From NCBI GenBank assembly GCA_963767925.1, contig CAVYGB010000010.1:64001-128000 (forward strand): a DNA stretch of 64,000 nucleotides, read 5' to 3'. Below the pieces are notes generated by a model. That model did no database searches and was not told the origin of the DNA. It saw only the letters and a list, made by a program, of their open reading frames with translations. Of the stretch, positions 38,234 through 61,645 are shown piece after piece. Positions within the stretch are counted from its first letter, which is position 1. Each line of letters opens with the position of its first letter. The position numbers were made by a program, and so were the translations under genes. The DNA is from an uncultured delta proteobacterium (GTDB lineage Bacteria; Myxococcota_A; Polyangia; Fen-1088).

Positions 38234-39091
38234 ATGAACGCCCTGCTCCTCACCACCCTCCTGCTGGCGGGTCCCGACGCTGCGGTCGATGCGCCTGTCG
38301 CTCCGGCGGAGCCGGTCCTCTCCATGGCCGACGCCACCATCACCTCCTCGCTGAGCGGGGCGCTCGCCCGGGAGCCCGACGGCGCGGTGCTGTCGGCGCT
38401 GGCGGGGCGAATTTTCATGTGGCACGTCGACCTCAACAAGGAGATCGAGCGGGGGGATCGGGTGCGCCTGCTCTACTACCGGGACGGGGCCGGGGACCTC
38501 ATCGTCGCGGCCGCGCGCTACCGGTCGGCCCGCAAGGGGACCACCTTCGACGCCTTTCGCTTCCAGGCCACCGGCGACATCGCGCCGAGCTACTGGGACG
38601 CCGACGGCAAAGAGGTCCCGGAGCGGCTCCGCGACGGGCCCCTGCGCAGCTACGATCAGATCACCGCCCTCCTCAAGGATCGACCGACCCACCGGGGGAT
38701 GGACTTCAAGGCGCCCATCGGGACACCGGTCCACGCCCACCGGACCGGCACCGTGAGCCGGGTGAACTGGCGGCGGGGGGGCAACGGCATGTGCCTCGAG
38801 ATCCGGTTCGGCGACGGCACCCTGGCCAAGTACCTGCACCTGTCGGCCATCTCGGCCCGCCGCGGGCAGCGGGTGAAACCGGGAGACCGGGTGGCGCTCA
38901 CCGGAAACACCGGGCGGTCGACGGCGCCCCATCTGCACTACCAGCTCGAGCGGGGCAGCCGCACCGTCGACCCGCTCGACTACCACGGCACCTACCGCCG
39001 CGCGCTCACGCCCCCGGACCGCGCCTCGTTTTCGCTCGAGCGGCGCCGCTTGCTGGCCCGCCTGCAGCAGCCCGGCGCGCCCGATCGCTGA
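38234..39091 (+). CDS. M23 family metallopeptidase
   Basis: HRGMD, GTPV, YLHLS, GNTGRSTAPHLHY. Confidence 0.92.
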   Translation: MNALLLTTLLLAGPDAAVDAPVAPAEPVLSMADATITSSLSGALAREPDGAVLSALAGRIFMWHVDLNKEIERGDRVRLLYYRDGAGDLIVAAARYRSARKGTTFDAFRFQATGDIAPSYWDADGKEVPERLRDGPLRSYDQITALLKDRPTHRGMDFKAPIGTPVHAHRTGTVSRVNWRRGGNGMCLEIRFGDGTLAKYLHLSAISARRGQRVKPGDRVALTGNTGRSTAPHLHYQLERGSRTVDPLDYHGTYRRALTPPDRASFSLERRRLLARLQQPGAPDR

Positions 39092-39584
39092 CACCGTCAG
39101 CCGATCCCGCGGGCCGCGGGCGGCCGCGCCGCCAGAGGATCTCCAGGTGGCCGGGGGCCACCAGGTCGGGGAGGCGACCGACCCGCTCGAAGCCGAGCGC
39201 CCGGTAGAAGCGAGCGGCGGCCCGGTTCTCCCGGGCGGACGAGGTGTAGAGCCAGCGCGCCCCCGCGAACACCCGGACGGCGGCGTCCTCCACCAGGGCG
39301 CGCCCGATCCCCTGCCCGGCCTCGGCGGCGGGTACCGCCAGCAGGGCGATGAACCCGCCCAGCAGCACCTGCGGCTGCACCACGATGATCCCCACGACGC
39401 GCGCGCCGGCCCCCCGCCCCTGGACCGCCACCCGCACCCAGCCCTCGGCCGATCGGCGGGCCAGCCAGCGCCCCAGCCCGTCGGCCCGGTACCCCAGCGA
39501 CCGCCAGGGCTCCGCGGCCACGATCCAGCGCGCCTGGCGGCGGGCCTCGCCGGGGCGGGCCCGGCGGATGCGGGTGGCCTTCAC
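39006..39584 (-). CDS. GNAT N-acetyltransferase
   Basis: EPW..LG, LAV...GQGIGRAL, N.AAARFYRALGF; 3' end overlaps the convergent M23 gene. Confidence 0.8.
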   Translation of the reverse strand: MKATRIRRARPGEARRQARWIVAAEPWRSLGYRADGLGRWLARRSAEGWVRVAVQGRGAGARVVGIIVVQPQVLLGGFIALLAVPAAEAGQGIGRALVEDAAVRVFAGARWLYTSSARENRAAARFYRALGFERVGRLPDLVAPGHLEILWRRGRPRPAGSADGVSDRARRAAAGGPASGAARAKTRRGPGA

Positions 39585-39633
39585 GACCGGCGAGCTTGCC
39601 CCCCGGCGGCGGGGCCGGTCGAGGACAAACCGC

Positions 39634-40422
39634 TCACGGGTGGTCGGCCGCGGTCAGGGCGGGCGGCGGCGGCACCCGCTTGCGGTAGCGGCGGGGCTGG
39701 GCCTGGACGATGGTGGCGTCGGGCAGGCGCAGCAGCTCCGAGACCCGCACGAAGCCGAAGCCCCGCTCGCGCAGCCGGCGGATGATCTCGGGCAGCGCCT
39801 TCTTCGTCTCCGGGCCCCGCCCGTTGATGTGGAAGATCACGATCGACCCGGGCTGCACGGCGGCGGTCACCCCCTCCACCATCCGCCGGGCGCTGACGTA
39901 GCCGCCCGCGTCCTGCGAGACGACGTCCCACAGGACGATGGGGCGGCCCCCGGTCTGGAAGGGGAGCCAGGCCGCCCAGTCCCCGAAGGGCGGCCGGAAG
40001 CCAACCGACTGCCGGTCGAGCGAGGCGATGATCCGATCGGTCCGCTCGATGTCGGCGCGGGCCTGCTCCATGGTGAGCCTCGAGAAGGCCGGGTGATCGT
40101 AGGAGTGGTTGCCGAGCTCGATGAGCGGCTCGCTGGCCAGGGCCAGCGCCTCTTGCCGGTGGGTCTCGACCCAGCGGCCCGAGACGAACACGGTGGCCGG
40201 GACCTCCTCGTCCTGCAGGATCTCGAACACGTCGCTGTCGAAGCCGCGCGGGCCGCGCTGGGTGGGACAGGCGTCGAAGGTCAAGGCCACCACCGGCTGG
40301 CGGGTGGTCACGGCGGCGATGGCGCTGGCGGCGCTCCCCGGTCCTGTCACCCGCTCGCCGGCGGCGACCGGCGCGGCGCCGGCCAGCAGCAGCACCAGCA
40401 GCCCGAGCCTTCGCCACCCCAT
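39634..40422 (-). CDS. CE4 polysaccharide deacetylase (secreted)
   Basis: Signal peptide; VALTFDAC, ATVFVSG, GNHSYDH, FRPPFG, GSIVIFH. Confidence 0.88.
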   Translation of the reverse strand: MGWRRLGLLVLLLAGAAPVAAGERVTGPGSAASAIAAVTTRQPVVALTFDACPTQRGPRGFDSDVFEILQDEEVPATVFVSGRWVETHRQEALALASEPLIELGNHSYDHPAFSRLTMEQARADIERTDRIIASLDRQSVGFRPPFGDWAAWLPFQTGGRPIVLWDVVSQDAGGYVSARRMVEGVTAAVQPGSIVIFHINGRGPETKKALPEIIRRLRERGFGFVRVSELLRLPDATIVQAQPRRYRKRVPPPPALTAADHP

Positions 40423-40471
40423 GGGTGACGTTTCGACCGGAAATGGCGCGCCGTTTATGTAGTATGCGTAC

Positions 40472-41317
40472 TTACAATTTTTCTGACTTATTCATGTCGG
40501 CCTCCAGCACCGCCAGGTTGCGCGCAAGCCCCGGCAGGGTCGGCTGCAAGGCGTGGGCGGTGCGGTAGGCCCGGTGGGCCTCGGCGAGGCGGCCCAGCAT
40601 GTGCTCGACAAGGCCGATGCTGGCATGGGCCTCGGCGAAGGTGGGAAAGTCGGCCGCCGCGCGCCGGTAGCGGGCCAGCGCCTCCTGGGTGCGGCCGCGC
40701 TCGCGCAGCTCGTTGGCCAGGTTGAAGCGCAGGACGGCCGCCACCTCGGGCGGGGTGAGCGGGCGCAGGTAGGCCGCGCCGGCCGCGGGCACCGCGTATT
40801 TGCTGCGATACCAGCTATCGGGCATCGGCTCGCCCTGGCGCAGCAGCTCGACGTTGGCCAGGCCGGGCCCGGCCCCGTCGCGCACGCGCACGAAGAAGTG
40901 GCCCGGCACCAGCACGCCGACCGCCGGCACCCCGGCCGCTTCGGCCAGCGCCAGGTACAGGCTGCCGAGGCCCACGCAGGTCCCCCGCCGCTCGCGCACG
41001 ACCCCGGGCAGCAGCATGAAGCGGGCCTGCTGGCTGGTGATCTCGCGCTCGAACCGGCCCTCTTCGAACAGCAGCCGCCGGAACACCTCGGCCGGGCGGT
41101 CCCCCCGGCGCAGGGCCGGCTTCGCGCGCTCCACCATCCGGCCCAGCTCGGCCCGGGTCAGGTCCGCCGTCGCCGCGCTCAGGTCCCCCGTCTCGAGCGC
41201 CACCTCCAGCAGGGCCGACAGGGCGGGTCCGGGCGGCGGCTGCCGGCGGCAACCGGCCAGCAGGCCCAGCAGCAGCGCCAGCAGGGCCGCCTGGGGGACG
41301 CGGGGGACGCGCATCAC
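40472..41317 (-). CDS. SirB1/transglutaminase-like lipoprotein with TPRs
   Basis: Lipobox LAGC; RRGTCVGL..LY, PGHFFVR, NVE (putative Cys-His-acid triad); C-terminal TPRs. Confidence 0.8.
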   Translation of the reverse strand: MMRVPRVPQAALLALLLGLLAGCRRQPPPGPALSALLEVALETGDLSAATADLTRAELGRMVERAKPALRRGDRPAEVFRRLLFEEGRFEREITSQQARFMLLPGVVRERRGTCVGLGSLYLALAEAAGVPAVGVLVPGHFFVRVRDGAGPGLANVELLRQGEPMPDSWYRSKYAVPAAGAAYLRPLTPPEVAAVLRFNLANELRERGRTQEALARYRRAAADFPTFAEAHASIGLVEHMLGRLAEAHRAYRTAHALQPTLPGLARNLAVLEADMNKSEKL

Positions 41318-43356
41318 TTCGCCGCGGCGAGCGGCTCCCAGTCCTCCCAGTAGTTGTACAGATCGCGCGCCGTCATCATCCAGACCACGAGGCGCTTGTT
41401 CTTGAGCTCCTCGGTCCCCCGGCGCATCAGCTTGTGCCGGACGTTGGGCCCGCCGCCGTAGCTCATCACGAGATCGACCGGGTAGCCGAGGGCGCGGGCC
41501 AGGTGGGCCGACACGCCGGCGTGCTCGCAGTCGGTGAGCTGGTAGACGCCGGTGAAGCTGTCACCGAGGAGGACGATGGGGCTGCCGGCGTCGTCGTCGT
41601 AGGGCGCCCCGTCGGCGTTGAGGACCCGCAGCCCGGTCAGCGCCTCGGGCTTGAAGCGCTTCTTGTCCGCTTCGCGCAGGCGGGAGTGCAGATCCCCGTA
41701 GCGCGTGAAGGGGACCTCCAGGGTGGAGTAGCTGCGCGCGCGGGTGGCCAGCTCGGCGTACCAGGGGTAGCGCTTGATCCGGTCGGCCACCGCGGCGGCG
41801 GCCAGCTCCAGGCCGGCGCTGGTCCAGTGGGTGTCCTGGTGCTGGAAGATGGCCGGGCCGTCGCCCCGCCGGCGGGCCAGGAAAGGTGGCCACAGGTCCA
41901 CCACCTCCACCCCCGCCTCGGCCAGGGCGAGCAGCAGCTTGCGCGAGAAGGGGTTGACCAGCTTCCCGGCCAGGGCGGCGTTGGCCGGGTCGAGCTTGTC
42001 CGGATAGACCTCGACCTTGTCCGGGACGGGCACGAACAGGAAGTCGACCCCCTGCTTGGCGAGGAAGTTCTTCCACTCGACGATGACCGAGAGGGGGCTC
42101 TTCTTGCGCGGCTGCCGCTCGAGGTCGCCGCCCACCGCGTATTCGAGCGAGGCCCGGTAAAACAGGTAGCCGTCCTGGCCGGGCAGTCCCTTGATGGCGG
42201 GGGGCGCCGAGCGCAGGTGCTTGCGCACGACGGTGGCGAAGGGCAGCACCCGCTTGCGCCAGCTCTCCCAGGAGCCGCCGCCCACCTCCTTGACCTCGCG
42301 CCGGATCGCCTCCGCCACCCGCCCGGGGTCGGCGCTGGTGCGCCCGGGGCTGAGGCGAAGGGCGGCCGTCGACGAGGAAGCGGCGGTCGCCTTGGGGCCG
42401 ATCCCCTTGACCAGGAAGACGTTGTAGACCGCCCGGCCCTCGGGCTTGCCTCGCATCACCACGGTCGGCGCCTCGACGCTGTAGTCGCCGAGCGAGCCCC
42501 GTACCTCCGCCTCGGTCTGATCGTCGGGCCAGCGCGGGCCCGACCCGGCGAGGTCGGTGTTGTACGAGGGGTACCAGTAAGAGGCGAGCTTGTGGGCCCA
42601 GGCGTGCACCTCGGCCGGGGCCAGCGGCTTGCCCGCGTAGTCGTCGAGGAGCAGGGCGGCCGCGGCGGCCGGGAAGAGATCCGGGCGGGCCCGGCCGTAG
42701 ATCTCGGCGTAGCCATCGCCGTCCTCGTCGGGCAGCTCGGAGAGCCCTTGCCACCAGGGGGCAAACTCGACCTTGACCCAGAGCTGGCGGGGCTGGCCGC
42801 CCCCCGGATCGTGCAGGTAGACCTCGCTGGCCTGCTGGCGGGGCAGCGGCGGCCCGGCGCCCAGCCCCCAGCTCTCCTCGCGGACGGCCGAGGAGATCTC
42901 CTCGACCCCCTCGGCCAGCTTGGCGTTCTTCTCGGCCAGCCACTGGGCCAGGGGCGCCAGGGCCATCGGGCGGGCGCGCTCGCCGTCCGAGAGGGGCGTC
43001 TTGCGGATCGACCCGGTCAAGGTGGCCGGATCGAGCACGCCCCGGAACAGCTCGCTCGGGCTGATGCGCGGCCGGCCCGGGGCGGCCTCCCCCTCGGGGG
43101 CCGGCTCGGCGATGAGGAAGTTGGCGTGGTAGGCGGCGAAGTCGAGGTTGGCCCGGGTGGGCCGATCGATCTCGCGCACCAGCACCTGGGCGTCGACCCG
43201 CCGGTAGCGGGGGCTCACGGTGCGCACCTCCGCGTGCCGCGCCGGCACCACCTCGCCCCCGCTGGACCAGGGCGACCGGGCGGCCCCCGAGGCGCAGGCC
43301 AGGCCCGCGATGCCGATGCTGAACCCGAGGAAGATGCGGCTGTTCATGCTGTCCAT
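41314..43356 (-). CDS. Lipoprotein with AlgX/AlgJ SGNH-like O-acetyltransferase domain
   Basis: Lipobox GLAC; GQDGYLF, VPVPDK..YP, DTHWT..G, LLGDSF. Confidence 0.82.
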   Translation of the reverse strand: MDSMNSRIFLGFSIGIAGLACASGAARSPWSSGGEVVPARHAEVRTVSPRYRRVDAQVLVREIDRPTRANLDFAAYHANFLIAEPAPEGEAAPGRPRISPSELFRGVLDPATLTGSIRKTPLSDGERARPMALAPLAQWLAEKNAKLAEGVEEISSAVREESWGLGAGPPLPRQQASEVYLHDPGGGQPRQLWVKVEFAPWWQGLSELPDEDGDGYAEIYGRARPDLFPAAAAALLLDDYAGKPLAPAEVHAWAHKLASYWYPSYNTDLAGSGPRWPDDQTEAEVRGSLGDYSVEAPTVVMRGKPEGRAVYNVFLVKGIGPKATAASSSTAALRLSPGRTSADPGRVAEAIRREVKEVGGGSWESWRKRVLPFATVVRKHLRSAPPAIKGLPGQDGYLFYRASLEYAVGGDLERQPRKKSPLSVIVEWKNFLAKQGVDFLFVPVPDKVEVYPDKLDPANAALAGKLVNPFSRKLLLALAEAGVEVVDLWPPFLARRRGDGPAIFQHQDTHWTSAGLELAAAAVADRIKRYPWYAELATRARSYSTLEVPFTRYGDLHSRLREADKKRFKPEALTGLRVLNADGAPYDDDAGSPIVLLGDSFTGVYQLTDCEHAGVSAHLARALGYPVDLVMSYGGGPNVRHKLMRRGTEELKNKRLVVWMMTARDLYNYWEDWEPLAAAK

Positions 43357-43383
43357 GGAGACCTCGTTCGATGGGCCCGCGCC

Positions 43384-44136
43384 TCAGGCGCGGGCGGGAA
43401 GATCCTCGGGAGCGACCGGCCCCCGGTAGTCGCCGCGCCGATAGCGCCAGAGGACGCGCAGGACGCGCAGCCCGTAGCGCAGCGGGCGCAGGTGGGAGAC
43501 CTCGTCGCCGTAGTGGGTGGGGATCGGCGCCTCGCCGACCCGCAGGCCGGCGGCGCGGGCCGAGGCGATGACCTCCAGGTCGAAGTCGAAGCTGTCCGAC
43601 AGCTCGGGAAAGCGAATCCGCGCCAGCGCACGGGGGCCGTATACCAGATAACCGCTGTGGTAGTCGCTGAGGTGCAGCCCGAAGGTGAGGTTCTCGAGCC
43701 GGTTGAGCCCGGCGTTGGCCAGGTACTTGTAGAGCGGCATGCCCCCGGACAGGGCGGTGCCCGAAGCGATGCGCGATCCCTGCAGCAGGTCGAGCCCCCT
43801 GCCCTGCAGCTCGCGCAGCAGCCGGCCGAGCACCTCGGGGCTGTACTGGCCGTCGGCGTGCACGCCGGCCACCGTGCTGGCGCCGGCGGCCAGGGCGGCG
43901 GCCAGCCCGTCTTTCATGGCGGCGCCGTAGCCCCCGTTGCGAGGGCGGCGGATCAGGCGGAGGCGCGGCTCGACGGCGGCGAGCCGGGCGGCCACCGCGG
44001 CGGTGTCGTCGCCGCTGCCGTCATCGACGACGATGATCCCGCCCAGCTCCGGGGGGGCCGTTCGTACCAGGCGGTCGATCACGCCGGGCAGGTGGCGGGA
44101 GGCCTGATAGGCCGGGACCACCACCTGCAGGCTCAC
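43384..44136 (-). CDS. GT2 glycosyltransferase (DPM/ArnC-like)
   Basis: VVPAY, VDDGSGD, NGGYGAA, HADGQY, GSR, SDYHSGY, FDFDLE, PIPTHYG; GTGA overlap with the upstream gene. Confidence 0.9.
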   Translation of the reverse strand: MSLQVVVPAYQASRHLPGVIDRLVRTAPPELGGIIVVDDGSGDDTAAVAARLAAVEPRLRLIRRPRNGGYGAAMKDGLAAALAAGASTVAGVHADGQYSPEVLGRLLRELQGRGLDLLQGSRIASGTALSGGMPLYKYLANAGLNRLENLTFGLHLSDYHSGYLVYGPRALARIRFPELSDSFDFDLEVIASARAAGLRVGEAPIPTHYGDEVSHLRPLRYGLRVLRVLWRYRRGDYRGPVAPEDLPARA

Positions 44137-45257
44137 GCCCCGCTCCCGCCACCGCCCCCCAGCGCCGCCCGGGCGGCGGCGGCGGCGATCTCGGGACCGT
44201 AGCGGGCCCGGTAGTCGGCCACGATGGGCGGCAACATCTTCGCCAGCGGGGTGTGGGGGGTCCAGCCGAGCAGCCGTTGCGCCTTGTCGATGTCGGGGAT
44301 CCGCTCGTCGCAGTCGTCGTAGCCGGCCCCGTAGAACTCCTCCGCCGTCACCTCCCGGGTGTGCACGCGCGCCTCCGGGACCTGCTGCTGATAGGCCCGC
44401 CCGATCTGGTCGGCCAGCTCGGCGATGCTGAGGTCGTTGGCCGGATTGCCGAGGTTGAAGATCTCGCCCCGGCAGGCGGCCGGCCGCTCGAGGATGCCGA
44501 CCACCGCCTCGACGAAGTCCTCGATGGCCACGAAGGAACGGCGCTGCCGTCCCCCCTCCACGAGGGCCAGGTCTTCCCCCCGCAGCAGGGCCGACATGAA
44601 CGCCGCCAGCACCCGGGGGATCCCCTCGCCGTCGATGTCGGGGACGAAGTCCATGCGCGGCCCGATCACGTTGAAGGGGCGGACGATGGTGAAGGGGAGG
44701 CCGTGGTGACGCCCGCTGGCGAAGATCACCCGCTCGAGGAGCTGCTTGGCGCAGGCGTAGGTCCAGCGCTCCCGGTGCACGGGGCCCAGCCAGAGGGCGC
44801 TGTCCTCCTCGTTCATGCGGGCCATCGGCCGCCCCTCGCCGTCGAGGGCCGCCCGCCCGTAGACCTCGCAGGTGGAGAAGTGGACGAGCCAGCGCTCCCG
44901 TTCGGTGCACAGGCGCACGAGCGGCACGAGGTCGGTGTAGCTGGCGTCGATCACCTCGAGCGGGCGCGTGTTGTAGAGCGAGGGGTTGCACAGGGCGGTC
45001 AGCGACACGACGGCGTCACAGCCCTCGACGACCTCCTCGATCAAGCCCGGCTTGTCGAGGCGGGCCTGGATGCGCCGGACCCGCCCGTCGGTGGGGGCCA
45101 GCTTGGTGAAGGAGACGTCGACCGCCCAGACCTCGCGGTCGGGCCGGGCCAGCAGCGCCGGCACCAGGTGAGACCCGATGAACCCACCCGCCCCCAGCAC
45201 CGCGACCCGGGTGGGGCGAGCGGGCGGCCGCCCCGAAAACGTTCGCGGAGTGCTCAT
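44133..45257 (-). CDS. UDP-D-apiose/UDP-D-xylose synthase (plant AXS/UAS-like SDR)
   Basis: GAGGFIGSHL, ALCNPSLYNTRPL, HFSTCEVYG, RWTYACAKQLLER, FTIVRPFN.IGPRMDF.P, PRVLA, FNLGNP.N, EFYG.GYDD.D.RIPD. Confidence 0.85.
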   Translation of the reverse strand: MSTPRTFSGRPPARPTRVAVLGAGGFIGSHLVPALLARPDREVWAVDVSFTKLAPTDGRVRRIQARLDKPGLIEEVVEGCDAVVSLTALCNPSLYNTRPLEVIDASYTDLVPLVRLCTERERWLVHFSTCEVYGRAALDGEGRPMARMNEEDSALWLGPVHRERWTYACAKQLLERVIFASGRHHGLPFTIVRPFNVIGPRMDFVPDIDGEGIPRVLAAFMSALLRGEDLALVEGGRQRRSFVAIEDFVEAVVGILERPAACRGEIFNLGNPANDLSIAELADQIGRAYQQQVPEARVHTREVTAEEFYGAGYDDCDERIPDIDKAQRLLGWTPHTPLAKMLPPIVADYRARYGPEIAAAAARAALGGGGGSGA

Positions 45258-45291
45258 CGGGCTGCCACCGGGGTGCTGCTTTCGGCGACGA

Positions 45292-46344
45292 TCAGGGCGC
45301 GCTGGCCGCGGCCCGCGCGCCACCGCCCGGCACGAAGATGTCGGGCCAGCGGTCGTTGCCAGAGTGAAAGGTCAGGCGGGCGGCCTGATCGGCCGGGCTG
45401 CCCACCTGCCACAGGTAGATCTCGTAGTCGGCGATGTCGTGATCGTGCCCGCGCTGGGTGGCAGCCCAGACCAGGAATCCGCCGTCGTCCGACAGCTCCG
45501 GGAAATATTCGTGCGATCGGCGCCCGGGCAGGTCGATGAAGGTCTTCTGGTCGTCGGGCACCTCGCCGGCGAGCCGGGAACCCTTGGTCTCGGCGCGGAA
45601 GACGCGGCTGCCGCCGTTGCCGGTGGGGTGGACCCAGTAGACCGAGCGGCCGTCGGGGGTCCAGTTGATCTGGCAGCCGTCGCCGGTGCGGGTCCAGGTG
45701 CCGCCGGCCACGTCCCAGATGCCGGTCTCGCGCTTGGAGCCGCGCAGGGTGATGGCGATGAACTTGCCGTCGCGGGACATCTGCGGCTGCTGCAGCAAGG
45801 CCCCCTCGAGATCGGACACCTTCTCGCTGTCGACGAGGACGGTCTCCTCGCTGCCGCCCAGCTTCTTGCGGTAGACGCGGGTGCTGCGCACGAAGAGGAT
45901 CTCTTCGCCCGAGACCCAGGTCCCCCAGCTCGCGTTCTCCACCGCCGGCTGCGCCTCGCCACCTTCGGCCGGCATGAGGTACAGGTCCCACTTGCCGTCG
46001 GCGTTGGCGTCGCGCTCGCTGACCCAGCCCTTCTTGCTGCGCACGAAGAGGATCTGCTTTCCGTCGGGTGAATAGCGAGGGAACCAGTCGACCGGATCGC
46101 CCTTCGTGAGCTGCTCGAGGTTGCCCCCGTCGGTGTCCATGGCGAACAGGTCGTGGTTGCCCAGCCGCGAGCTGGACCAGACGATGCGGCCCTTCACCTT
46201 GGCGCCCACCGCCTTGATCTTGGCCGCCTCGGCCGCGTCGATCTGGGCGCCGCTGCCGGTGGGGGCGGCCCCTCCGACCGCGGCACAGCCGGCCAGCAGC
46301 GCCAGCAAGGTCCAGGGGAGAAAGAAATTCATCTTGGCTTTCAT
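45292..46344 (-). CDS. TolB-like (PD40) beta-propeller lipoprotein
   Basis: Lipobox LAGC; WSSSR.GN.DLF, PRYSPDGK, RLTFHSGNDRWPD. Confidence 0.85.
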   Translation of the reverse strand: MKAKMNFFLPWTLLALLAGCAAVGGAAPTGSGAQIDAAEAAKIKAVGAKVKGRIVWSSSRLGNHDLFAMDTDGGNLEQLTKGDPVDWFPRYSPDGKQILFVRSKKGWVSERDANADGKWDLYLMPAEGGEAQPAVENASWGTWVSGEEILFVRSTRVYRKKLGGSEETVLVDSEKVSDLEGALLQQPQMSRDGKFIAITLRGSKRETGIWDVAGGTWTRTGDGCQINWTPDGRSVYWVHPTGNGGSRVFRAETKGSRLAGEVPDDQKTFIDLPGRRSHEYFPELSDDGGFLVWAATQRGHDHDIADYEIYLWQVGSPADQAARLTFHSGNDRWPDIFVPGGGARAAASAP

Positions 46345-47294
46345 GACACCAGCTCCTGCCGCTCCGGGCGGCTCGCGAGGGTTGTTGCGGGGAGAGGGAA
46401 GCAGCGAGCCAGACCCTCCCGGACGCCCAGGGGAAGATAGCCGAGATCGCGGCTGGCCTCATCCGGGGGTAGATCGGCGTCGTGGACCATGCCGGCGATC
46501 GCCTGCAGGGTCAGCGGGGGATCGCGCATCAGCAGGCCGAGGCCCAGCGCGGCCGCCTGGCACAGGCGCACCGGCAGGTGCACGAAGGCCTTGCGCTGGC
46601 CGCGGCGGGCGAGCAGCAGCTCGGCCAGCTCGCGGATGGTCACCGCCTCGCCGCCGCTGAAGTTGTAGGTCTTGCCCCGGCTGCGGGGGTTGCCGGCGAT
46701 GCGGGCCAGTCCGTCCACGATGTCCTGAGCCCAGACCGGGCGCTTGCGGGCAAGGCCGTCGCCGATGAACGGCACCACCGGAAAGCGCTCGAGATAGCGC
46801 CAGAACAGCAGCAGCTCCTGGCCCCCGCCCTCGTCGTAGACCAGGGTCGGCCGCACGATGGTGTGGGCCATCCCGCCCTGGCCCTTGACCAGCGCCTCGC
46901 CCGCCAGCTTCGACTGCCCGTAGCGGGTCAGGCTGGGGTAGGTCACCGAGGCCGAGGAGACGTAGACGAAGTGGTCCACCCCGGCGCGCGCCGCCTCCGC
47001 CACCATGCGCGCGGTCCCCAGCCGGTTGATGCGGTCGAAGGCGCCGGGATCGGGCGAGAGGATGATGGCGGCGAGGTGGAACACGGTGGACACGCCGTCG
47101 AGCAGCCCGACCAGCGACGCGGGATCGGCCAGGTCCCCCTCGCGAATGTCGCAGGGCAGCCCCTGGAGGCGCGCCCGAAAGGGATCGCCCGGCTGCACGA
47201 GCGCCCGCACCGTCCAGCCCGTCTCCACCAGCGTTCGTACCAGCCGCGACCCCAGGACACCGCTGGCGCCCGACACGAAGACGACGCGTTTCAC
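46341..47294 (-). CDS. Atypical/extended SDR NAD(P)-dependent epimerase/dehydratase
   Basis: VSGASGVLG, HLAA, YVSS, YGQSK, IVRPT.VY; ATGA overlap with the TolB-like gene. Confidence 0.88.
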   Translation of the reverse strand: MKRVVFVSGASGVLGSRLVRTLVETGWTVRALVQPGDPFRARLQGLPCDIREGDLADPASLVGLLDGVSTVFHLAAIILSPDPGAFDRINRLGTARMVAEAARAGVDHFVYVSSASVTYPSLTRYGQSKLAGEALVKGQGGMAHTIVRPTLVYDEGGGQELLLFWRYLERFPVVPFIGDGLARKRPVWAQDIVDGLARIAGNPRSRGKTYNFSGGEAVTIRELAELLLARRGQRKAFVHLPVRLCQAAALGLGLLMRDPPLTLQAIAGMVHDADLPPDEASRDLGYLPLGVREGLARCFPLPATTLASRPERQELVS

Positions 47295-47484
47295 TGAGGC
47301 GGGGACGCTAGCAAAAGCGATCCGGGCCAGCAAGCTGCGACGCGGAGCGGGCCCCGCCAGCGCGGCGCCCTCCGCCGCGCGTCAGTCCTTTACCTATCTT
47401 TTTCAGTGCGCCGCTTGGCCTGGAACGATTGCGTAGGTAGCCTGGGGCCTCTCGCGCCAGGCCCCGGCGGCGAGCCGTAACATC

Positions 47485-48582
47485 ATGCGTACGCGCTTCG
47501 CGTTTCCCAAAGTCGGTGGCCATCTGGCCGGGCTCGGCCTGCTGGCCGCGCTCGGCGTGGCCGCCGGAGGAGTCCTGGCGCTCGATCGCGGTGCCGAGGC
47601 GCACCGCCTGGGTGCAAGGGTCGATCGTCTCGCCCGCCTGACGGCCGCAGGCCTCCCCGCCGCTACCTGCCTTCCTGGCTCGCTGGCGGGGGCGATGCCG
47701 GCCAGCCCGGGCGCGCCGCTGCTGGCCGCCTGGCAGAGCGTCGCCGGCTGCGGGGCCAGCTCGGCGACGGGCGGCGGCGGTGGCGTCAAGTGGATCGGCC
47801 GCAGCGTGACCGGCGGGCTGTTCGGCGTGCAGTGCCAGGCGAGCTACAGCCCGCTGCTCGCGGTGCGCGACAAGATCGAGCACCACTTCGTGGTCAACAC
47901 CCTCATCACGACCGAGATCACCGACCGGGTGAGCCTGGGGATCAACATCCCCCTCGTCTACAAGTACCTGCGCGACCCGTATCAGCTCGACATCGATCTC
48001 TCGAACAGCGGCCTCGGCGACACCTCTATCCAGGTGACCCGCCAGCTCGGCCCCATCGGCGCCACCGCCCTCACTGCCACCGTCGGCGTCCCGACGGGCA
48101 AGTGGGACACCACCTACCGCAACTCGCCCATGCCGCAGCATCAGCAACTCGGCTTCGGCAAGGCGACCGGGTCGCTCACCCTGGATCACACGATGGATCA
48201 AACCTGGGGGCTGGTCGTGCTGGGCGGCCTCGGCTCCTGGCGGGGCGGGCAGAACCACTGGGAGAGCTACCGGGCCCCCAGCGCCACCGCCTACACCTAC
48301 GCCGGGCTGTACCTGGGGTCCTTCGTGCCCTCGGTGGGGTTCACCACCACGGGCTTTCTCGGGCACGACCGCGACCGTTCCCAGCCCGAAAACAGCGGCA
48401 TCCTGGTGATGTCGGCCAACGCCTCGCTGGAGTGGTCGACCGACTGGATCGCGGTGCTGGCCGGGGTGTCGCTGCCCTATCAGTACGACGCGATCCTGCG
48501 CGACAGCGAGGGGTTCCCCAGGAACCCCTGGCGCTGGGGGCAGTGGGTGCTCGGCCTCGGCGTGACGGTTTCTCCGTTCTGA
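47485..48582 (+). CDS. Putative outer-membrane beta-barrel/transporter
   Basis: N-terminal hydrophobic segment, GLGD motif, PTG, beta-strand pattern, C-terminal Phe. Confidence 0.7.
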   Translation: MRTRFAFPKVGGHLAGLGLLAALGVAAGGVLALDRGAEAHRLGARVDRLARLTAAGLPAATCLPGSLAGAMPASPGAPLLAAWQSVAGCGASSATGGGGGVKWIGRSVTGGLFGVQCQASYSPLLAVRDKIEHHFVVNTLITTEITDRVSLGINIPLVYKYLRDPYQLDIDLSNSGLGDTSIQVTRQLGPIGATALTATVGVPTGKWDTTYRNSPMPQHQQLGFGKATGSLTLDHTMDQTWGLVVLGGLGSWRGGQNHWESYRAPSATAYTYAGLYLGSFVPSVGFTTTGFLGHDRDRSQPENSGILVMSANASLEWSTDWIAVLAGVSLPYQYDAILRDSEGFPRNPWRWGQWVLGLGVTVSPF

Positions 48583-48644
48583 GACCATTGCGTCTGACGA
48601 ATGTGGCCCCCCCGGCGCTCCAACAGCAAGCAGTGGAGAACACA

Positions 48645-49733
48645 ATGACTCGGGCTCGACGAACCTTCTGGCTTCCGGTCGCCTTCAGCTTGCTGGCTGG
48701 CGCCCTCTCCTGCGGCTTGCAGGAGCACCCCCAGGACACGCCCGACCCGGACCCTGGTGATCCCGGGTTCGGCCCCCTCGATCCGGGGCCACCGGCGCCC
48801 ACGCCAGCACCCGCTGCGCCGCCGACGTCGTCGATCGACCCCCCACCCGCGCCGCCGGCAGCACCGCCCTCCGCCCCCCCGGCACCCGGCGCCGGCCCCG
48901 CACCGTCCCCGGCGCCCGTCCCACCGGTGGTGAGCCCCCAGCCGACCGGGCCCGGCGTCACCATCAACGGGACCTTCGTGCCCAAGGACAAGGCCCTCGT
49001 CGTCATCCACTGGGGCCACTCGAACATGTACGGGCAGGCCGACTCGCCCTCGTCGCTGCGCCCCTTCTTCTACGACACCCAGCCGGGGCTCTGGTCGTAC
49101 CAGGGCAACAACCGCTTCCGGCTGGCCCGGGAGAAGACGGCGCCCGCGCCGGCCGGGGACAACAACGACAGCGCCGGTCCGGGCATGGCCATCTTGCGCA
49201 CCCTGGCCGCCGCCGCGCCGGCCAACGGCGGGTACCACGTCATCTCCATCGGTCGCGGGCGGGGCAGCGCCACAACCGAAGATTTCCTCAAGGGGGGGCT
49301 GTATTACTCGACCTTCATGAACCTGGCGGTGCAGCTCAAGGGGCGGGTGACCTTCGCCGGCATGTTCATCATGATGGGCATCACCGATCGCCACATGCCC
49401 ACCCGCGACCAGGGCGGCTTCGCCGACCGGATGACCCAGATCGTCGCCGACATCCGGACCGACCTCGGCGAGCCCAACCTCCCCGTCCTGCACACCGACT
49501 ACGAGGTAACGTCGACCGGGGAGCTCAGCGTCAACACCGAGTTCGCCCGGCGCATCCGGCCGCTCATGTTGTCCCTGCCCCAGCGGGTCGCCAACCTGGC
49601 GATCATCCCCTGCGACGACATCCCCCTCGAGGACGACCACCACTTCACCCTCGCCGGGCACAAGCTGTGGGCCGAGCGGGGGGTAGAGATCCTGCGCACC
49701 CGCGGCTGGCTGCCCTGGTCGGCCAACCGCTGA
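48645..49733 (+). CDS. Lipoprotein: Pro-rich linker plus SASA/CE6-type O-acetylesterase
   Basis: Lipobox ALSC; Pro-rich stalk; GHSNMYG, AGPG, DDHHF. Confidence 0.78.
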   Translation: MTRARRTFWLPVAFSLLAGALSCGLQEHPQDTPDPDPGDPGFGPLDPGPPAPTPAPAAPPTSSIDPPPAPPAAPPSAPPAPGAGPAPSPAPVPPVVSPQPTGPGVTINGTFVPKDKALVVIHWGHSNMYGQADSPSSLRPFFYDTQPGLWSYQGNNRFRLAREKTAPAPAGDNNDSAGPGMAILRTLAAAAPANGGYHVISIGRGRGSATTEDFLKGGLYYSTFMNLAVQLKGRVTFAGMFIMMGITDRHMPTRDQGGFADRMTQIVADIRTDLGEPNLPVLHTDYEVTSTGELSVNTEFARRIRPLMLSLPQRVANLAIIPCDDIPLEDDHHFTLAGHKLWAERGVEILRTRGWLPWSANR

Positions 49734-49754
49734 TCGCCGCTCGTCAGCGCGGCG

Positions 49755-58946: not shown

Positions 58947-60968
58947 TCACGGGGGCGCCGGCACCTGGGCCTCGAGCTCGTCCAGGATCGCCCGGGCCTC
59001 CGCATCGTAAGGATCCTCGGTCAAGGATCGGCGCAGCCACCCGATGCCCCCCGGCAGGTCGCCCCGGGCGAGCGAGACCAGCGCCAGCAGGTTGGTCGCC
59101 ACCACCGGGACGCGCCCGTCGTCGAGCAGGCGCCGCCCGATCGCCTCGGCGGCCGCGAGATCGCCGAGCGCCAGGTGGCAGCGGGCGGCCAGCGCCTGGG
59201 CGGCGGTGTCCCCCGCGGTGAGCGGCGACAGGACGTGGAGGGCTTCGGCCGGCTGACCCACCGCGAGCAACAGCCGGGCGAGCTGCCGGCGGGCGGCGTC
59301 GGCGACCTCGCGCTGGCTGCCGTAACGACGCGCCTGCTCGGCCAGCACCCCATCGGTGGTCCTCCGTGCGGCCAGGTCGAGCCCCGGCGGGCCCGCCGGA
59401 TCGTGCCGGAACAACGACTCGGTGCCGTCGGTGTAGACCAGCCGCCAGTCGGGCGACCGATGGAGGTGGGCGAACAGCGGGAGGTAGCGGTCGGGATAGT
59501 CGGTGGGGAGGGCGGCGAAGTCGAACCGGTGGCGAGCGGCAAAGGCCGGCCAGCGCGCGGGGTCCTCCAGCAGGGCGAGGAACTCGGCGTATTCGTCGGC
59601 GGTGCGCAGCACCAGGCGGGTGTCGAGGTACGGCGCCGCCCGGGGGTGGAGCGCCCAGATCAGGTACCCGCCGTAGTGGTCGGCCGAGAAGACACGACCG
59701 CCCCCGGGCGCTCGATCGATCACCCGCGCCGATTCGACCGGGACCCGGAACGGCACCGGCTCGGCGAGCGGCGTCTCTCGAGACAGCGCCACCCCCAGCA
59801 ATCCCGCCACCGCCGCGCATCCGCTGGCCCAGGTGGCCAGCGGCAGGATCCGGGCCGGCCACCCCGGCCGGCGCTGGCGCCAGCGGGCGAGGCCGCTGGC
59901 CAGCGCGGGGGCGACGTTGGCGACGGCGACGGGGATCGCGATCCAGAACAGCAGCAACACGTTGCGGTTGGCGCTGAGGGCGAGCCCGGCGAAGGCCAGG
60001 ACCAGCAGAGCCCGCCCCCACCTTCGCCCGGGCGGGGCCACCCGGAAGCTGGCCGCGACGAGCGCGAGCAGGATCAGCAGCGGCAAGATCTGCCCCGGGT
60101 CCCCGCGCGCCAGCACCAGGGGCGGGACGTTCTCCGCCACCTGGCTGGAGAACACGTTGGCGTCGGCGGGCACCAGCCGCAGCAGCAGCTTCACCGGCAG
60201 CGCCGCCCCCCGCCACCCGTAGGGCGTCACGAACCCCGCCAGCACCGAGGCCGCCAGCACCAGCAGCAGCCGGCGGGCTCCCCCCTCCGGCAACTCCCGC
60301 GCCCCGCGCCAGCGCGCCACCCCCGCGCCGCCCAGCGCGCTCCCGATCATCACCGGCCCCAGCGGCCACAGCCCCTGGCAGTTGGCCCAGACCGCGGTCA
60401 ATCCCGGCAGGATCCAGATCGCCCGCCGGGCCCGCCCGGCGGCGAACCGCTCGAGCAAGGCCCCGAAGGCCGCACAGAAGACGAGCGTCAGGATCACCGG
60501 CCGCGCCAGCAGCAAGTGCCGCACGAACAGCAACCCCAGCGGCAACCCCAGCGCCAGCAACGCCCCCGCGACAATGCGTACCCGCGCTGCCGACCCGTCG
60601 CCTTCGACGGGGTCGGCCGCCCTGCCCGCCGATTGCTCGGCGCATGAGGCCCCATCGCCTGCTCGCCCCGGGTCGTCTGCCGGGGGAAGTCCCGTCTCCA
60701 CCGCGCGCAGCCACAGGAACGCCCCGCCGCCGACCAGGATCGCCTTCGCCAGCACCAGCGCGAGCAGACCGCCGAGCTGGTACACCCCGTAGGCCCCGAG
60801 CTGGAACAGCCAGTGCAGATCGATCCAGGGCCGCCCCCGCGCCCCCAGCGAAAACGGATCCGCCCACAGCAGCGCCCGGCGGGCGACCATCTCCCGGCCG
60901 GCGGCCAGGTGCCACCAGATGTCCGAATCGGCGACCGGCGTCAGCGCCGCCGCCCCCGCGAGCAACAC
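58947..60968 (-). CDS. Polytopic GT-C-like membrane protein with C-terminal TPRs
   Basis: DSDIWWHLAAGR, W.DLHWLFQ, RP, WANCQG, TPYG, GGYLIW, DTR; about 10 or more TM segments; TPR tail. Frame stays open upstream to at least CTG 61067. Confidence 0.72.
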   Translation of the reverse strand: MLLAGAAALTPVADSDIWWHLAAGREMVARRALLWADPFSLGARGRPWIDLHWLFQLGAYGVYQLGGLLALVLAKAILVGGGAFLWLRAVETGLPPADDPGRAGDGASCAEQSAGRAADPVEGDGSAARVRIVAGALLALGLPLGLLFVRHLLLARPVILTLVFCAAFGALLERFAAGRARRAIWILPGLTAVWANCQGLWPLGPVMIGSALGGAGVARWRGARELPEGGARRLLLVLAASVLAGFVTPYGWRGAALPVKLLLRLVPADANVFSSQVAENVPPLVLARGDPGQILPLLILLALVAASFRVAPPGRRWGRALLVLAFAGLALSANRNVLLLFWIAIPVAVANVAPALASGLARWRQRRPGWPARILPLATWASGCAAVAGLLGVALSRETPLAEPVPFRVPVESARVIDRAPGGGRVFSADHYGGYLIWALHPRAAPYLDTRLVLRTADEYAEFLALLEDPARWPAFAARHRFDFAALPTDYPDRYLPLFAHLHRSPDWRLVYTDGTESLFRHDPAGPPGLDLAARRTTDGVLAEQARRYGSQREVADAARRQLARLLLAVGQPAEALHVLSPLTAGDTAAQALAARCHLALGDLAAAEAIGRRLLDDGRVPVVATNLLALVSLARGDLPGGIGWLRRSLTEDPYDAEARAILDELEAQVPAPP

Positions 60969-60986
60969 GAGGACGACGATGGCCCC

Positions 60987-61528: not shown

Positions 61529-61645
61529 GGCTAATACGACTCCGCTACAAGCGGCGGCCATACTAGCAAAAGCGGCCCCGGTTTGCCCCTGGCGCCGGGC
61601 GTGGGCGTCGGCGGTGCTCGCCCGGGCGCGCTACCCGGTGCCCGC

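Follow-up and report, generated by a model that had tools for sequence, protein, structure and literature searches.

A conserved gene set around a UDP-apiose/UDP-xylose synthase homolog of bacteria and its candidate role in envelope glycosylation

Results

The window, the whole 64,000-nt stretch of DNA analyzed here, comes from a soil myxobacterium-like genome. Eight open reading frames lie on its minus strand between positions 39006 and 47294; they are present as a preliminary description of the locus had claimed, and its domain calls were confirmed by Pfam and NCBIfam. By their coordinates, three junctions are 4-nt overlaps (SDR/PD40, UAS/GT2, and AlgX/TG-TPR) and the remaining four are gaps of 34, 27, 49, and 49 nt. 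A filter for stop-to-stop frames with GC3>0.85 was passed by five of the eight operon frames. The GT2, TG-TPR, and GNAT frames are absent from the filtered list; all three are supported by domain matches, and the GT2 and TG-TPR calls are further backed by orthologs at other loci.

The extended SDR (46341..47294) is NDUFA9/HpnA-like and carries a Pfam Epimerase match (1.3e-19). Its top NCBIfam match, HpnA, scores 92 bits against a cut-off of 367.65, and in the PDB it is closest to a bacterial NAD-dependent epimerase/dehydratase (9g83_P) and to NDUFA9 subunits of complex I; the motifs GASGVLG and YGQSK are seen in the translation. Two lipoproteins have a canonical LAGC lipobox: a PD40/TolB-like beta-propeller (45292..46344; PF07676, 1.7e-11) that matches the TolB model at 3.6e-13, under the cut-off, and a Transglut_core2 protein with TPRs (TG-TPR, 40472..41317; PF13369, 1.6e-14).

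The UDP-apiose/UDP-xylose synthase homolog (UAS, 44133..45257) has Arabidopsis UAXS1 as its top PDB match (6h0n, 307.3 bits), with PbgP3 at 206.6 bits and ArnA at no more than 191.9 bits; in the same search the score to UAXS is ~77 bits above that to UXS. Residues Cys90, Tyr95, Thr129, Cys130, Glu131, Arg164, Tyr167, Lys171, Asn196, and Arg319 correspond to Cys100, Tyr105, Thr139, Cys140, Glu141, Arg182, Tyr185, Lys189, Asn214, and Arg341 of UAXS, respectively, and all ten mapped positions are invariant in A1. Two positions are listed as Cys in UAXS and as Ala/Ser in ArnA and UXS (PMC12820599, Table 3), and the PbgP3 alignment places Ala and Ser where UAS has Cys90 and Cys130. Of the 65 UAS ORFs called, 64 have Cys at the Cys100-equivalent and one is truncated; at the Cys140-equivalent, 62 have Cys and 3 have Ala. 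With UAXS1 as top match and both signature cysteines in place, the enzyme is at the sequence level of plant-type UAS and not of ArnA/UXS type, as had been proposed.

A 4-nt GTGA overlap joins UAS to a small GT2 (43384..44136; PF00535, 8.3e-22) resembling DPMS, ArnC, GtrB, and PpgS. The top NCBIfam matches are PpgS (66.8 bits, under its cut-off) and AglJ, and a family profile matches DPMS (5mlz, 70.6 bits), ArnC (57.5), and GtrB (56.6). ArnC, DPMS, and GtrB (sll0501) are PDB molecule names among these matches, and PpgS is the name of an NCBIfam model. Both searches place the protein closest to polyprenyl-phosphate glycosyltransferases, in agreement with its initial assignment as DPM/ArnC-like. 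The similarity is modest, with a chondroitin synthase tying with ArnC at 57.5 bits, and no TM helix is predicted; both points count against the reading favored below.

The AlgX/AlgJ-type SGNH protein (41314..43356; PF16822 over residues 392-661, 1.9e-31) begins with a conserved N-terminal domain of ~390 aa that has no assigned fold, and its GLAC lipobox is looser than the canonical one. Its profile matches AlgX (7ula, 5.9e-9), AlgJ (4o8v, 8.3e-9), and PatB1 (4.6e-4), with the motifs D508-x-H510 and G598-D599-S600 invariant. The last two genes encode a secreted CE4 deacetylase (39634..40422; PF01522, 3.9e-26), whose signal peptide lacks a cysteine, and a GNAT acetyltransferase (39006..39584; PF13508 and PF00583).

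Divergent from the operon, on the plus strand, lies a gene for an outer-membrane beta-barrel with a long N-terminal helix (47485..48582). It has no Pfam or NCBIfam match and was assigned as FapF/COG4313-like from its AF2 model (pLDDT 76.6; helix 11-54, barrel 113-362) and Foldseek matches to FapF (5o65_B, E 2.7e-10, TM 0.51/0.62) and the COG4313 channel (4rl8_A, E 2.1e-6); the window protein and the three orthologs read end in a C-terminal Phe. A gene in the same direction encodes a putative SASA/SGNH-like esterase with a signal peptide (48645..49733, plus strand; PF03629, 7.7e-15).

Farther along, a minus-strand gene (58947..60968) encodes a membrane glycosyltransferase of GT-C fold with ~9 hydrophobic segments, a periplasmic domain, and C-terminal TPRs. 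Its AF2 model (pLDDT 83.4, pTM 0.82) matched STT3 (8agb_A, 4.5e-5) and ArnT (5f15, 1.8e-3) in Foldseek and, by VIA, STT3A (8pn9_A, Z 23.4, 4.0 Å, 466 aligned), PglB (Z 19.8), and ArnT (Z 18.0). Every top structural match is a GT-C enzyme, and D14 and D16, a D-x-D motif following TM1, are invariant. Upstream of this gene lies one for a small secreted protein with a conserved core of ~115 aa (61064..61561, minus strand), recognized through orthologs at other loci (75-80% identity over the core); it has no Pfam, NCBIfam, or PDB match.

Conservation of the gene neighborhood

We surveyed 70 UAS loci, mostly from Polyangia MAGs, plus Fibrobacterota and Planctomycetota; 65 had room for a downstream gene and 30 were well flanked (9 kb or more to either side). 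GT2 lies immediately downstream of UAS in 62 of the 65, and the SDR (53/70), PD40 (54), AlgX-like (55), and TG-TPR (45) genes recur around UAS, so that the neighborhood proposed for survey is indeed conserved. Chitinispirillaceae have minimal loci, UAS-GT2-TG/TPR, in which the TG-TPR gene is still retained. Two loci (L050, L051) have the SDR and UAS without GT2, which counts against the favored reading, and in two others (L002, L067) polytopic membrane proteins of another kind (~535 aa) come after UAS-GT2. The core gene order is repeated in three phyla. The gene arrangement exceeds chance: dozens of other genomes have these genes around their UAS, whereas control flanking genes (M23, disulfide reductase, FadL) were found at 0 of 70 UAS loci.

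The eight genes are not the unit that had been suggested. CE4 was found at two of the 70 loci, in cluster position solely at L001, the closest relative; the other match (L066) is 28% identical, on the opposite strand, and ~8 kb away. GNAT occurs at L001 only (1/70). Both are lineage-specific add-ons outside the conserved set and merely neighbors, and the deacetylation step once ascribed to the operon finds no comparative support.

Six partners seen in relatives had been missed: the barrel (33/70 loci), the SASA-like esterase (20), the GT-C/TPR protein (23), the small secreted protein (29), an MBOAT protein, and a second AlgJ-like protein. Four of the six lie inside the window, at 47485-49733 and 58947-61561. 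The set numbers ~12 genes and is present in dozens of species. The barrel gene sits between PD40 and UAS at L037, L041, L043-L045, L048, L053, L056, and L057, and in the same position at L052, where the PD40 ORF is uncalled. At other loci the barrel is followed by a protein family with which the window esterase shares 51-56% identity. Loci of Polyangia, Fibrobacterota, and Planctomycetota have MBOAT and one or two AlgX-domain genes next to UAS; two or more AlgX-domain genes occur at 21 of the 30 well-flanked loci, and at three Fibrobacterota loci (L058, L059, L061) the small secreted protein gene lies immediately ahead of MBOAT. The earlier statement that MBOAT is missing holds within the window and not for the genome, where an orthologous MBOAT and AlgJ-like pair (78% and 61% identical) lies 1.43 Mb off on the same contig (G000 C10:1542037-1544815). 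The set is thus split over three places in the host: the operon region; the GT-C region, separated from the operon by 11.6 kb; and the distant MBOAT/AlgJ site. These distances count against the favored reading.

A GT-C ortholog lies within 10 kb of UAS at only the 23 loci above, which counts against the favored reading, though many of the 70 are short; among the 30 well-flanked loci the number is 16. In Fibrobacterota locus L062 it adjoins UAS-GT2-SDR-TG/TPR. In a sample of 401 genomes of the phylum, GT-C occurs in two, just those that also have a UAS with 65% identity or more; in one of them (G225) the UAS and GT-C genes are ~6 kb apart, and the other 399 genomes are without GT-C.

Comparison with known systems

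No published description of this gene set was found in our literature search, in keeping with the earlier remark that no described system with these genes was known to its author. Three-component systems for lipid-linked sugars include ArnA/ArnC/ArnT (lipid A Ara4N), PpgS/Rv3779 (arabinogalactan GalN), and GtrA/GtrB/GtrC (O-antigen glucosylation). The window set shares with them an SDR that decarboxylates UDP-GlcA and belongs to the ArnA-C/UAS lineage, lying beside a DPMS/ArnC-like GT2, with a GT-C membrane transferase as partner. It differs in that its UAS has the UAXS cysteines and not the ArnA residues, aminotransferase, formyltransferase, and flippase are missing, the GT2 is without TM helices, the GT-C protein bears TPRs and is most like oligosaccharyltransferases, and the whole is linked with an MBOAT/AlgJ/AlgX module, with lipoproteins, and with an outer-membrane barrel.

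AlgI/AlgJ/AlgF/AlgX form the alginate O-acetylation machinery, with PatA/PatB and Bacillus PatB1 as relatives. Here, too, an MBOAT occurs with two SGNH proteins that have an AlgX domain and the motifs D-x-H and GDS, the small secreted protein sits at the place of AlgF, and the set includes a TPR lipoprotein and an outer-membrane barrel. Unlike the alginate system, the window set is without an Alg8/Alg44-type synthase, and the UAS loci examined share no conserved synthase or polymerase; the small secreted protein lacks detectable similarity to solved structures, and the AlgX-like protein has its unrelated ~390-aa N-terminal domain. As the barrel is FapF/COG4313-like and has no Pfam match, nothing marks it as AlgE-like.

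With Arabidopsis UAXS1 the window UAS aligns over its full length (307 bits), keeping the catalytic triad and all mapped signature residues (PMC12820599, as tabulated in Table 3), whereas it is bacterial, is set in an envelope operon, and has a predicted product. The Xanthomonas pisi apiose operon, as described in PMC6193724, comprises XpUAS, the GT90 apiosyltransferase XpApiT, and the GT2 XylT; these three genes are flanked by IS3 elements and reported there to be unique to X. pisi. Its bacterial UAS heads the operon, and a 4-nt overlap couples the next glycosyltransferase gene, as in the window (PMC6193724). In contrast, GT90 (PF05686) had no match in any of our Pfam scans, the window GT2 matches Glycos_transf_2 and Glyco_tranf_2_3 and not the PF13704 named for XylT, and a set of ~12 genes in dozens of species stands against three genes (PMC6193724).

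Proposed pathway and alternatives

The set probably makes apiose (or xylose), loads it onto a membrane lipid, and attaches the sugar outside the inner membrane. More specifically, and with moderate confidence, we favor the joint view that the window contains most of a conserved multi-gene system and that this system performs an Arn/Gtr/PpgS-type envelope glycosylation, with UAS supplying the donor, GT2 charging a lipid, GT-C serving a periplasmic acceptor, and an O-acetylation module attached. UDP-apiose would be formed from UDP-glucuronate by UAS in the cytoplasm, UDP-xylose being the usual co-product, and the translationally coupled GT2 may load the pentose onto a polyprenyl phosphate on the inner side of the membrane. 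A putative flippase would turn the lipid-linked pentose over; none is in the conserved set, and the sole GtrA-family match of the genome sits on another contig. The GT-C/TPR enzyme (58947-60968) could then pass the flipped pentose to a periplasmic acceptor. The AlgI/AlgJ/AlgX-like module, its AlgX-like member from the operon and its MBOAT and AlgJ-like members from 1.43 Mb off, may O-acetylate the same glycan, and the PD40 and TG-TPR lipoproteins, the SASA-like esterase, and the FapF-like barrel might act on the product or pass it farther out. Oligosaccharyltransferases use diphosphate-linked oligosaccharides, not phosphate-linked monosaccharides, and it is enzymes of this kind that the GT-C protein matches best in structure, which speaks against our reading. 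The missing flippase, the lack of a conserved synthase or polymerase, and the conserved SDR, for which the pathway has no step, speak against it as well. Overall, the preliminary interpretation holds for the UAS type, the GT2 type, and the conserved neighborhood, and is not supported for the eight-gene unit and deacetylation. Apiose is a rare "plant" sugar, and this candidate apiose-type gene set is common to dozens of uncultured bacteria.

The lipid-linked pentose and GT-C could be retained with xylose or an SDR-modified pentose as the sugar, apiose being a side product or absent, a reading we hold to be unlikely. Characterized bacterial UAS are reported to yield UDP-xylose as well as UDP-apiose, and a glycosyltransferase that uses UDP-xylose is encoded in the X. 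pisi operon (PMC5607165, PMC6193724); the SDR conserved alongside UAS and GT2 (53/70 loci) and the Ala at the Cys140-equivalent of three orthologs point the same way. A plain UXS would nonetheless be enough for xylose, each of the 64 ORFs spanning the Cys100-equivalent keeps this ring-contraction signature residue, and the family is nearer UAXS than UXS by ~77 bits. Distinctly less probable is an ArnA-C-domain or U4kpxs-type decarboxylase forming a UDP-4-keto-pentose that the adjoining, conserved SDR reduces to another UDP-pentose. The top NCBIfam match of UAS is U4kpxs (NF008872, 273 bits; ArnA model 225.6), but 273 bits is below the cut-off of 294, UAXS leads PbgP3/ArnA by 100 bits in the PDB search, and both signature positions are Cys and not Ala/Ser. 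There is moreover no formyltransferase domain, the conserved set has no aminotransferase, and the best SDR matches are not of the nucleotide-sugar 4-reductase type.

We regard as improbable, to a similar degree, a GT2 that transfers the pentose directly to an acceptor on the cytoplasmic face, for instance a membrane lipid, with the SDR modifying the lipid, the FapF/FadL-like barrel exporting the glycolipid, and GT-C doing an unrelated job. This would suit the GT2 scores and lack of a TM helix, an SDR resembling lipid-facing SDRs (NDUFA9, HpnA, OleD, and SdmB models), a barrel with further matches to FadL and the COG4313 channel, and the minimal Chitinispirillaceae loci, which have no GT-C within 10 kb. 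Yet GT-C co-occurs with the UAS clade in the phylum sample (2/2 carriers, 0/399 others) and lies next to UAS-GT2-SDR-TG/TPR in a distant phylum (L062), and L002 and L067 carry their polytopic proteins after UAS-GT2. The model of PpgS, the best NCBIfam match of GT2, has only 226 positions, which leaves little space for a membrane domain in the PpgS family either. That the genes are chance neighbors without a joint system is consistent with the unconserved CE4 and GNAT, for which we accept it, and with the threefold split in the host; for the core it is very improbable, given a gene order held in three phyla against flanks at 0 of 70 loci and junctions that are translationally coupled.

UDP-apiose/UDP-xylose synthase homologue

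The UDP-apiose/UDP-xylose synthase homologue of the operon (UAS; 44133–45257, minus strand; 374 aa) was compared with all PDB sequences, among which its closest relative is the Arabidopsis UDP-apiose/UDP-xylose synthase 6h0n (307.3 bits, E = 1.3e-90, residues 9–360). The same search gave 206.6 bits for Burkholderia PbgP3 (3slg), no more than 191.9 for ArnA and no more than 76.9 for human UXS. By PDB bit score, the window protein is thus nearer to the characterised UAXS than to ArnA, U4kpxs/PbgP3 or UXS, which bears out the UAS-type identity first proposed for it.

Table 3 of PMC12820599 lists the residues common to these decarboxylases together with two peculiar to UAXS, Cys100 and Cys140, the positions of which are occupied by Ala/Ser in ArnA and UXS. 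These two residues align to Cys90 and Cys130 of the window UAS in the 6h0n alignment, and the PbgP3 alignment places Ala and Ser at the same positions. T129, Y167 and K171 are the SDR catalytic Thr/Tyr/Lys, and Y95, E131, R164, N196 and R319 are the equivalents of Tyr105, Glu141, Arg182, Asn214 and Arg341. An alignment of 20 homologues shows no variation in the triad, the signature cysteines or the other mapped residues. Across the 65 UAS ORFs called in related loci, the Cys100 equivalent is Cys in 64 (the remaining one is truncated), and the Cys140 equivalent is Cys in 62 and Ala in three.

A bifunctional ArnA was considered and rejected: the 374-aa protein has SDR-family matches only, no N-terminal formyltransferase domain, and Cys rather than Ala393/Ser433. 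When 5.8 billion proteins were searched with UAS, the best 120 matches listed had 62–100% identity, and most of these 120 are named 'UDP-apiose/xylose synthase' by JGI.

Conservation of the operon

The eight-gene run claimed in the preliminary description was recovered as eight minus-strand ORFs at 39006–47294, with each domain confirmed by Pfam and NCBIfam. UAS is preceded by an SDR (46341–47294) and a PD40/TolB-like lipoprotein (45292–46344), and is followed by a GT2 (43384–44136), an AlgX-domain protein (41314–43356), a Transglut_core2 and TPR lipoprotein (TG-TPR; 40472–41317), a CE4 protein (39634–40422) and a GNAT protein (39006–39584). Three of the junctions are 4-nt overlaps and the remaining gaps span 27–49 nt. 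The G+C content of the window is ~72%, and a promoter/terminator scan of 38800–49900 gave nothing exceeding shuffled controls. For 41314–47294, no RNA dataset was listed, and one DNA run shared a small fraction of its sequence words. The 3′ end of the GNAT ORF overlaps the 3′ end of a convergent M23 peptidase gene (38234–39091) by 86 nt (39006–39091); the GNAT tail is of low complexity and may be over-called.

In the neighbourhood survey suggested in the preliminary description, a UAS-clade alignment was scanned against one genome per GTDB species, returning 76 loci. We kept 70 (L001–L070; E ≤ 3e-81, 41–78% identity) and left out L071–L076 as other SDRs (E ≥ 7e-51, 25–41% identity). By record title, 59 of the 70 are Myxococcota, Polyangia or generic (delta)proteobacterial, seven Fibrobacterota or Chitinivibrionales, three Planctomycetota and one Rokubacteria-labelled; all come from MAGs, with L054 and L064 sharing one. 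Presence was scored by tblastn of window proteins within the fetched flanks. The core set does recur around UAS: GT2 is found in 62/70 loci (29 of the 30 loci having 9 kb or more on either side), the AlgX-like protein in 55 (25/30), PD40 in 54 (25/30), SDR in 53 (27/30) and TG-TPR in 45 (23/30). CE4 is found in two loci (1/30) and GNAT in one (0/30); the flanking M23, disulfide reductase and FadL genes are found in 0/70 loci, including 0/30 of the well-flanked ones. Given the high counts for the former group and the low counts for CE4 and GNAT, six of the eight genes make up a conserved core. The proposed eight-gene unit therefore holds for these six, and CE4 and GNAT are add-ons that occupy a cluster position only in L001, the closest relative.

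GT2 lies immediately downstream of UAS, in the same orientation, in 62 of the 65 loci with room for it. The exceptions are L020, with a GT2 fragment only, and L050 and L051, with no GT2. In the Rokubacteria-labelled MAG (L002:9911–13547), UAS and GT2 are 73% and 72% identical to those of the window, above most Polyangia loci, and stand without the other partners; a 539-aa protein with seven hydrophobic segments and no family follows. Horizontal transfer or mis-binning could account for this arrangement.

Partner families beyond the eight genes

Clustering of 994 ORFs from the 70 loci and 25 kb of the window (33001–58000) adds six families travelling with UAS that the preliminary description had missed. 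These are an MBOAT protein (34/70 loci), a second, shorter AlgX-domain protein (AlgX2; at least two AlgX-domain genes in 21/30 well-flanked loci), a ~365-aa protein with no family (33/70), a SASA-like SGNH protein (20/70), a ~660-aa membrane protein with C-terminal TPRs (23/70) and a small secreted protein (29/70). Locus representatives served as MBOAT queries; for the membrane/TPR protein, the small protein and the SASA-like esterase, they were combined with the window proteins.

The commonest gene order in Polyangia is small protein, 365-aa protein, membrane/TPR protein, SASA-like protein, MBOAT, AlgX2, SDR, PD40, UAS, GT2, AlgX-like protein of the operon (AlgX1) and TG-TPR. A Fibrobacterota locus (L058) runs barrel (the 365-aa protein), an unassigned ORF (L058:9287–9961), UAS-GT2-SDR, small protein, MBOAT, AlgX, AlgX and PD40, and a Planctomycetota locus (L057) has PD40, barrel and UAS-GT2-SDR facing TG-TPR, an unknown gene, AlgX, MBOAT and AlgX on the opposite strand. 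In the window, the 365-aa protein (47485–48582, plus strand) is divergent from the operon and is followed by the SASA-like protein (48645–49733, plus strand); the membrane/TPR protein (58947–60968) and the small secreted protein (61064–61561) are encoded on the minus strand.

The pair of MBOAT and AlgX genes adjoins UAS in relatives. In the window's own genome it forms a two-gene MBOAT and AlgX2 unit at C10:1542037–1544815, on the same contig as the operon and 1.43 Mb from it, and the system is therefore dispersed in this genome. Identity to the L024 and L013 proteins is 78% for its MBOAT and 61% for its AlgX2. Lactonase-type beta-propeller genes directly follow both dispersed parts, a Lactonase gene (57726–58946, minus strand) after the membrane/TPR gene and an SGL gene (L082:6769–7944, minus strand, in the stretch around the MBOAT pair) after the AlgJ-like gene; neither gene belongs to a family conserved across the other loci. 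The barrel and SASA-like esterase also occur elsewhere in the genome as adjacent paralogue pairs, plus one lone barrel, the sites being C8:904109–906190, C2:280114–282666, C8:933193–935065 and C10:1454396–1455247. Identities are 42–67% (barrel against the window's own, esterase against the L031/L035 orthologues), and several systems may draw on the pair as a shared module.

The GT2 protein

GT2 is a 250-aa protein in which no transmembrane helix or hydrophobic segment is predicted. NCBIfam ranks PpgS (polyprenyl-phospho-GalNAc synthase) and AglJ highest for it, both far under cut-offs. When a profile of 23 orthologues was compared with the PDB, Pyrococcus DPMS reached 70.6 bits, ArnC 57.5 and GtrB 56.6, with chondroitin synthase equal to ArnC at 57.5 bits over a shorter stretch. 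The conserved blocks are DDGS, HADGQY, LQGSR, TDYHSG and FDFDLE, and the conserved basic or amphipathic C-terminus, LRVLRVLWRY, might form an interface helix. With scores under the curated cut-offs, these features fit a polyprenyl-phosphate glycosyltransferase but are not proof of one.

The membrane/TPR protein as a GT-C glycosyltransferase

The membrane/TPR protein has ~9 hydrophobic segments, and an invariant ADxD(I/V)(W/F/Y)WHL motif lies directly behind the first of them. All of 16 sequences retain D14 and D16 of this motif (ADSDIWWHL), which lie in the first extracytoplasmic loop and are the putative catalytic residues. An AlphaFold model built from 16 sequences has a mean pLDDT of 83.4 and a pTM of 0.82. 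The first 25 Foldseek ranks are GT-C enzymes except for one low-TM row (rank 21), in the order STT3 (E = 4.5e-5), AglB, ArnT, ALG12, AftB, PglB, DPY19 and AftA. In VIA, model residues 1–525 match STT3A (Z = 23.4, 4.0 Å, 466 residues), PglB (Z = 19.8) and ArnT (Z = 18.0), with PglB, AglB, ArnT, DPY19, ALG12, AftA and EmbA/B all at Z ≥ 14, and the C-terminus is matched by TPR proteins. Judged by its predicted structure, the membrane/TPR protein is a GT-C glycosyltransferase. At the sequence level, a PDB sequence-profile search with the family returned TPR proteins only, and ESM Atlas returned TPR-named clusters only. The family consensus carries a conserved ADHxGGYLI stretch near residue 430, and lacks WWDYG, which we take to be the periplasmic-domain motif of oligosaccharyltransferases (STT3/PglB/AglB).

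A CCCCGT-type repeat (PVPVPV in frame; ~60975–61040, minus strand) fills the gap from the stop codon of the small protein to the GT-C gene; the start codon of the latter is uncertain for this reason, and GTG at 60968 was used. In a Planctomycetia MAG (L067:9980–14318), the gene after UAS-GT2-SDR encodes a 532-aa membrane protein with ~10 hydrophobic segments that matches nothing in Pfam or NCBIfam. No similarity to the GT-C family was found for it by hhalign (probability 0.2), and it may represent a different GT-C.

A 401-genome phylum sample was scanned with cut-offs of E ≤ 1e-80 for UAS and E ≤ 1e-20 for the GT-C family. UAS is found in six genomes, with >43% identity only in the window's own genome and one other (G225). 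The GT-C family is found in exactly these two, lying ~6 kb from UAS in G225. Since related genomes are not independent, this co-occurrence is a pointer and not a statistic.

Putative acetylation module, outer-membrane barrel and SDR

In the AlgX-like protein, D508, H510 and G598-D599-S600 are invariant; we presume that these D-x-H and GDS motifs map to the AlgX catalytic triad. The protein's profile matches AlgX, AlgJ and Bacillus PatB1, and its conserved N-terminal domain (~390 aa) gave no match in the profile search and no usable ESM Atlas match. The set resembles AlgI/AlgJ/AlgX-type O-acetylation in having both MBOAT and AlgX-domain SGNH proteins with D-x-H and Ser. The small secreted protein occupies a position matching that of the AlgF adaptor; Pfam and NCBIfam showed no similarity for it, and the PDB sequence-profile search returned no matches at E up to 10.

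NCBIfam has no match for the barrel, the esterase or the small protein, and the PDB sequence-profile search with the barrel gave one chance-level match. In the model of the 365-aa protein (pLDDT 76.6), a linker of low confidence joins a long N-terminal helix to a barrel of ~12–14 strands, the whole being nearest to the amyloid-secretion channel FapF (E = 2.7e-10, TM 0.51/0.62) and also resembling a COG4313 channel and FadL. The protein and three orthologues all end in Phe.

The SDR retains GxxGxxG and YxxxK and resembles NDUFA9/HpnA-type proteins. A link to hopanoids, raised by HpnA as the top model for the SDR and a weak HpnB match for GT2, was rejected as these scores lie far under cut-offs. 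So was a link to peptidoglycan, raised by the convergent M23 gene, which recurs in none of the 70 loci, and by a transglycosylase gene that lies upstream in L063 and L066 and was seen only in these two related loci.

Proposed pathway

We consider an Arn/Gtr/PpgS-type pathway the most economical reading of these data, and give it slightly better than even chances. UAS would produce UDP-apiose and UDP-xylose, and the coupled GT2 would form a polyprenyl-phosphate-pentose, with apiose modestly favoured over xylose as the transferred sugar. A flippase would carry this intermediate across the inner membrane, and the GT-C/TPR enzyme would attach the pentose to a periplasmic acceptor. The MBOAT/AlgJ/AlgX module would O-acetylate the glycan, and the lipoproteins, esterase and outer-membrane channel would act downstream. 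The folds, motifs, synteny and co-occurrence are observed; the nature of the carrier, of the sugar and of the acceptor is inferred, as is the link between the glycosylation and acetylation modules. Measured against the gene set, the preliminary interpretation was right in its core and wrong about its boundaries.

Several observations count against an Arn/Gtr/PpgS-type pathway. GT2 lacks a transmembrane helix, oligosaccharyltransferases are the nearest structures to the GT-C model, the SDR finds no place in the scheme, GT2 is missing from L050 and L051, and the genes are dispersed in the window's genome. Gtr/Arn-type three-component systems have a dedicated flippase, whereas none is present among the families conserved across the 70 loci; the sole GtrA-family match in the genome is on contig C2. 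A bolder scheme, which we regard as improbable, is a first lipid-linked apiose pathway in which UAS and GT2 supply polyprenyl-phosphate-apiose as the donor. A new, oligosaccharyltransferase-like and TPR-bearing GT-C would then add apiose to a protein of the periplasm or a secreted one, not to a polysaccharide; the AlgI/J/X-like module would acetylate the product, and the FapF-like outer-membrane channel would release it. This would be an envelope-spanning machine common to Polyangia, Fibrobacterota and Planctomycetota.

For precursor supply, UDP-glucose dehydrogenase-family genes have three matches elsewhere in the genome. A UDPGP-family uridylyltransferase gene (32846–33997, plus strand), 5 kb off the operon, could supply UDP-glucose; no conservation of it was seen.

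Apiose has long been regarded as a plant sugar. [quoted passage not shown] As described in PMC6193724, the X. pisi operon comprises three genes, UAS, a GT90 apiosyltransferase and a GT2 xylosyltransferase, and is thought there to be unique to X. pisi. Unlike that operon with its GT90, the present set gave no PF05686 match in any Pfam scan. No described system with this gene set was found among the papers listed by searches of openly available full text, in agreement with the preliminary description; 'UDP-apiose' together with 'undecaprenyl' was absent from the full text searched. Read in this way, the system would be a lipid-linked sugar modification whose donor is made by UAS, joined to acetylation machinery of the alginate type, and it is undescribed in the literature searched.

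A UAS clade in a conserved ~12-gene set, in roughly 70 species of three phyla, suggests how UDP-apiose could reach the cell envelope, along a concrete path that can be tested. Should this path prove correct, it would yield the first lipid-linked donor of apiose together with a GT-C enzyme transferring apiose or xylose, both of use in glycoengineering. The plant RG-II apiose pathway would gain a large outgroup among bacteria for tracing its origin, and abundant uncultured bacteria of soil and fen would be seen to carry a new envelope decoration.

Elsewhere in the window, a DUF1552/HXXSHH gene (52279–53592, minus strand) is interrupted by an in-frame TGA at 52813–52815. Both halves match one Pfam model, in order, and the split could reflect a pseudogene, a sequencing error or recoding.
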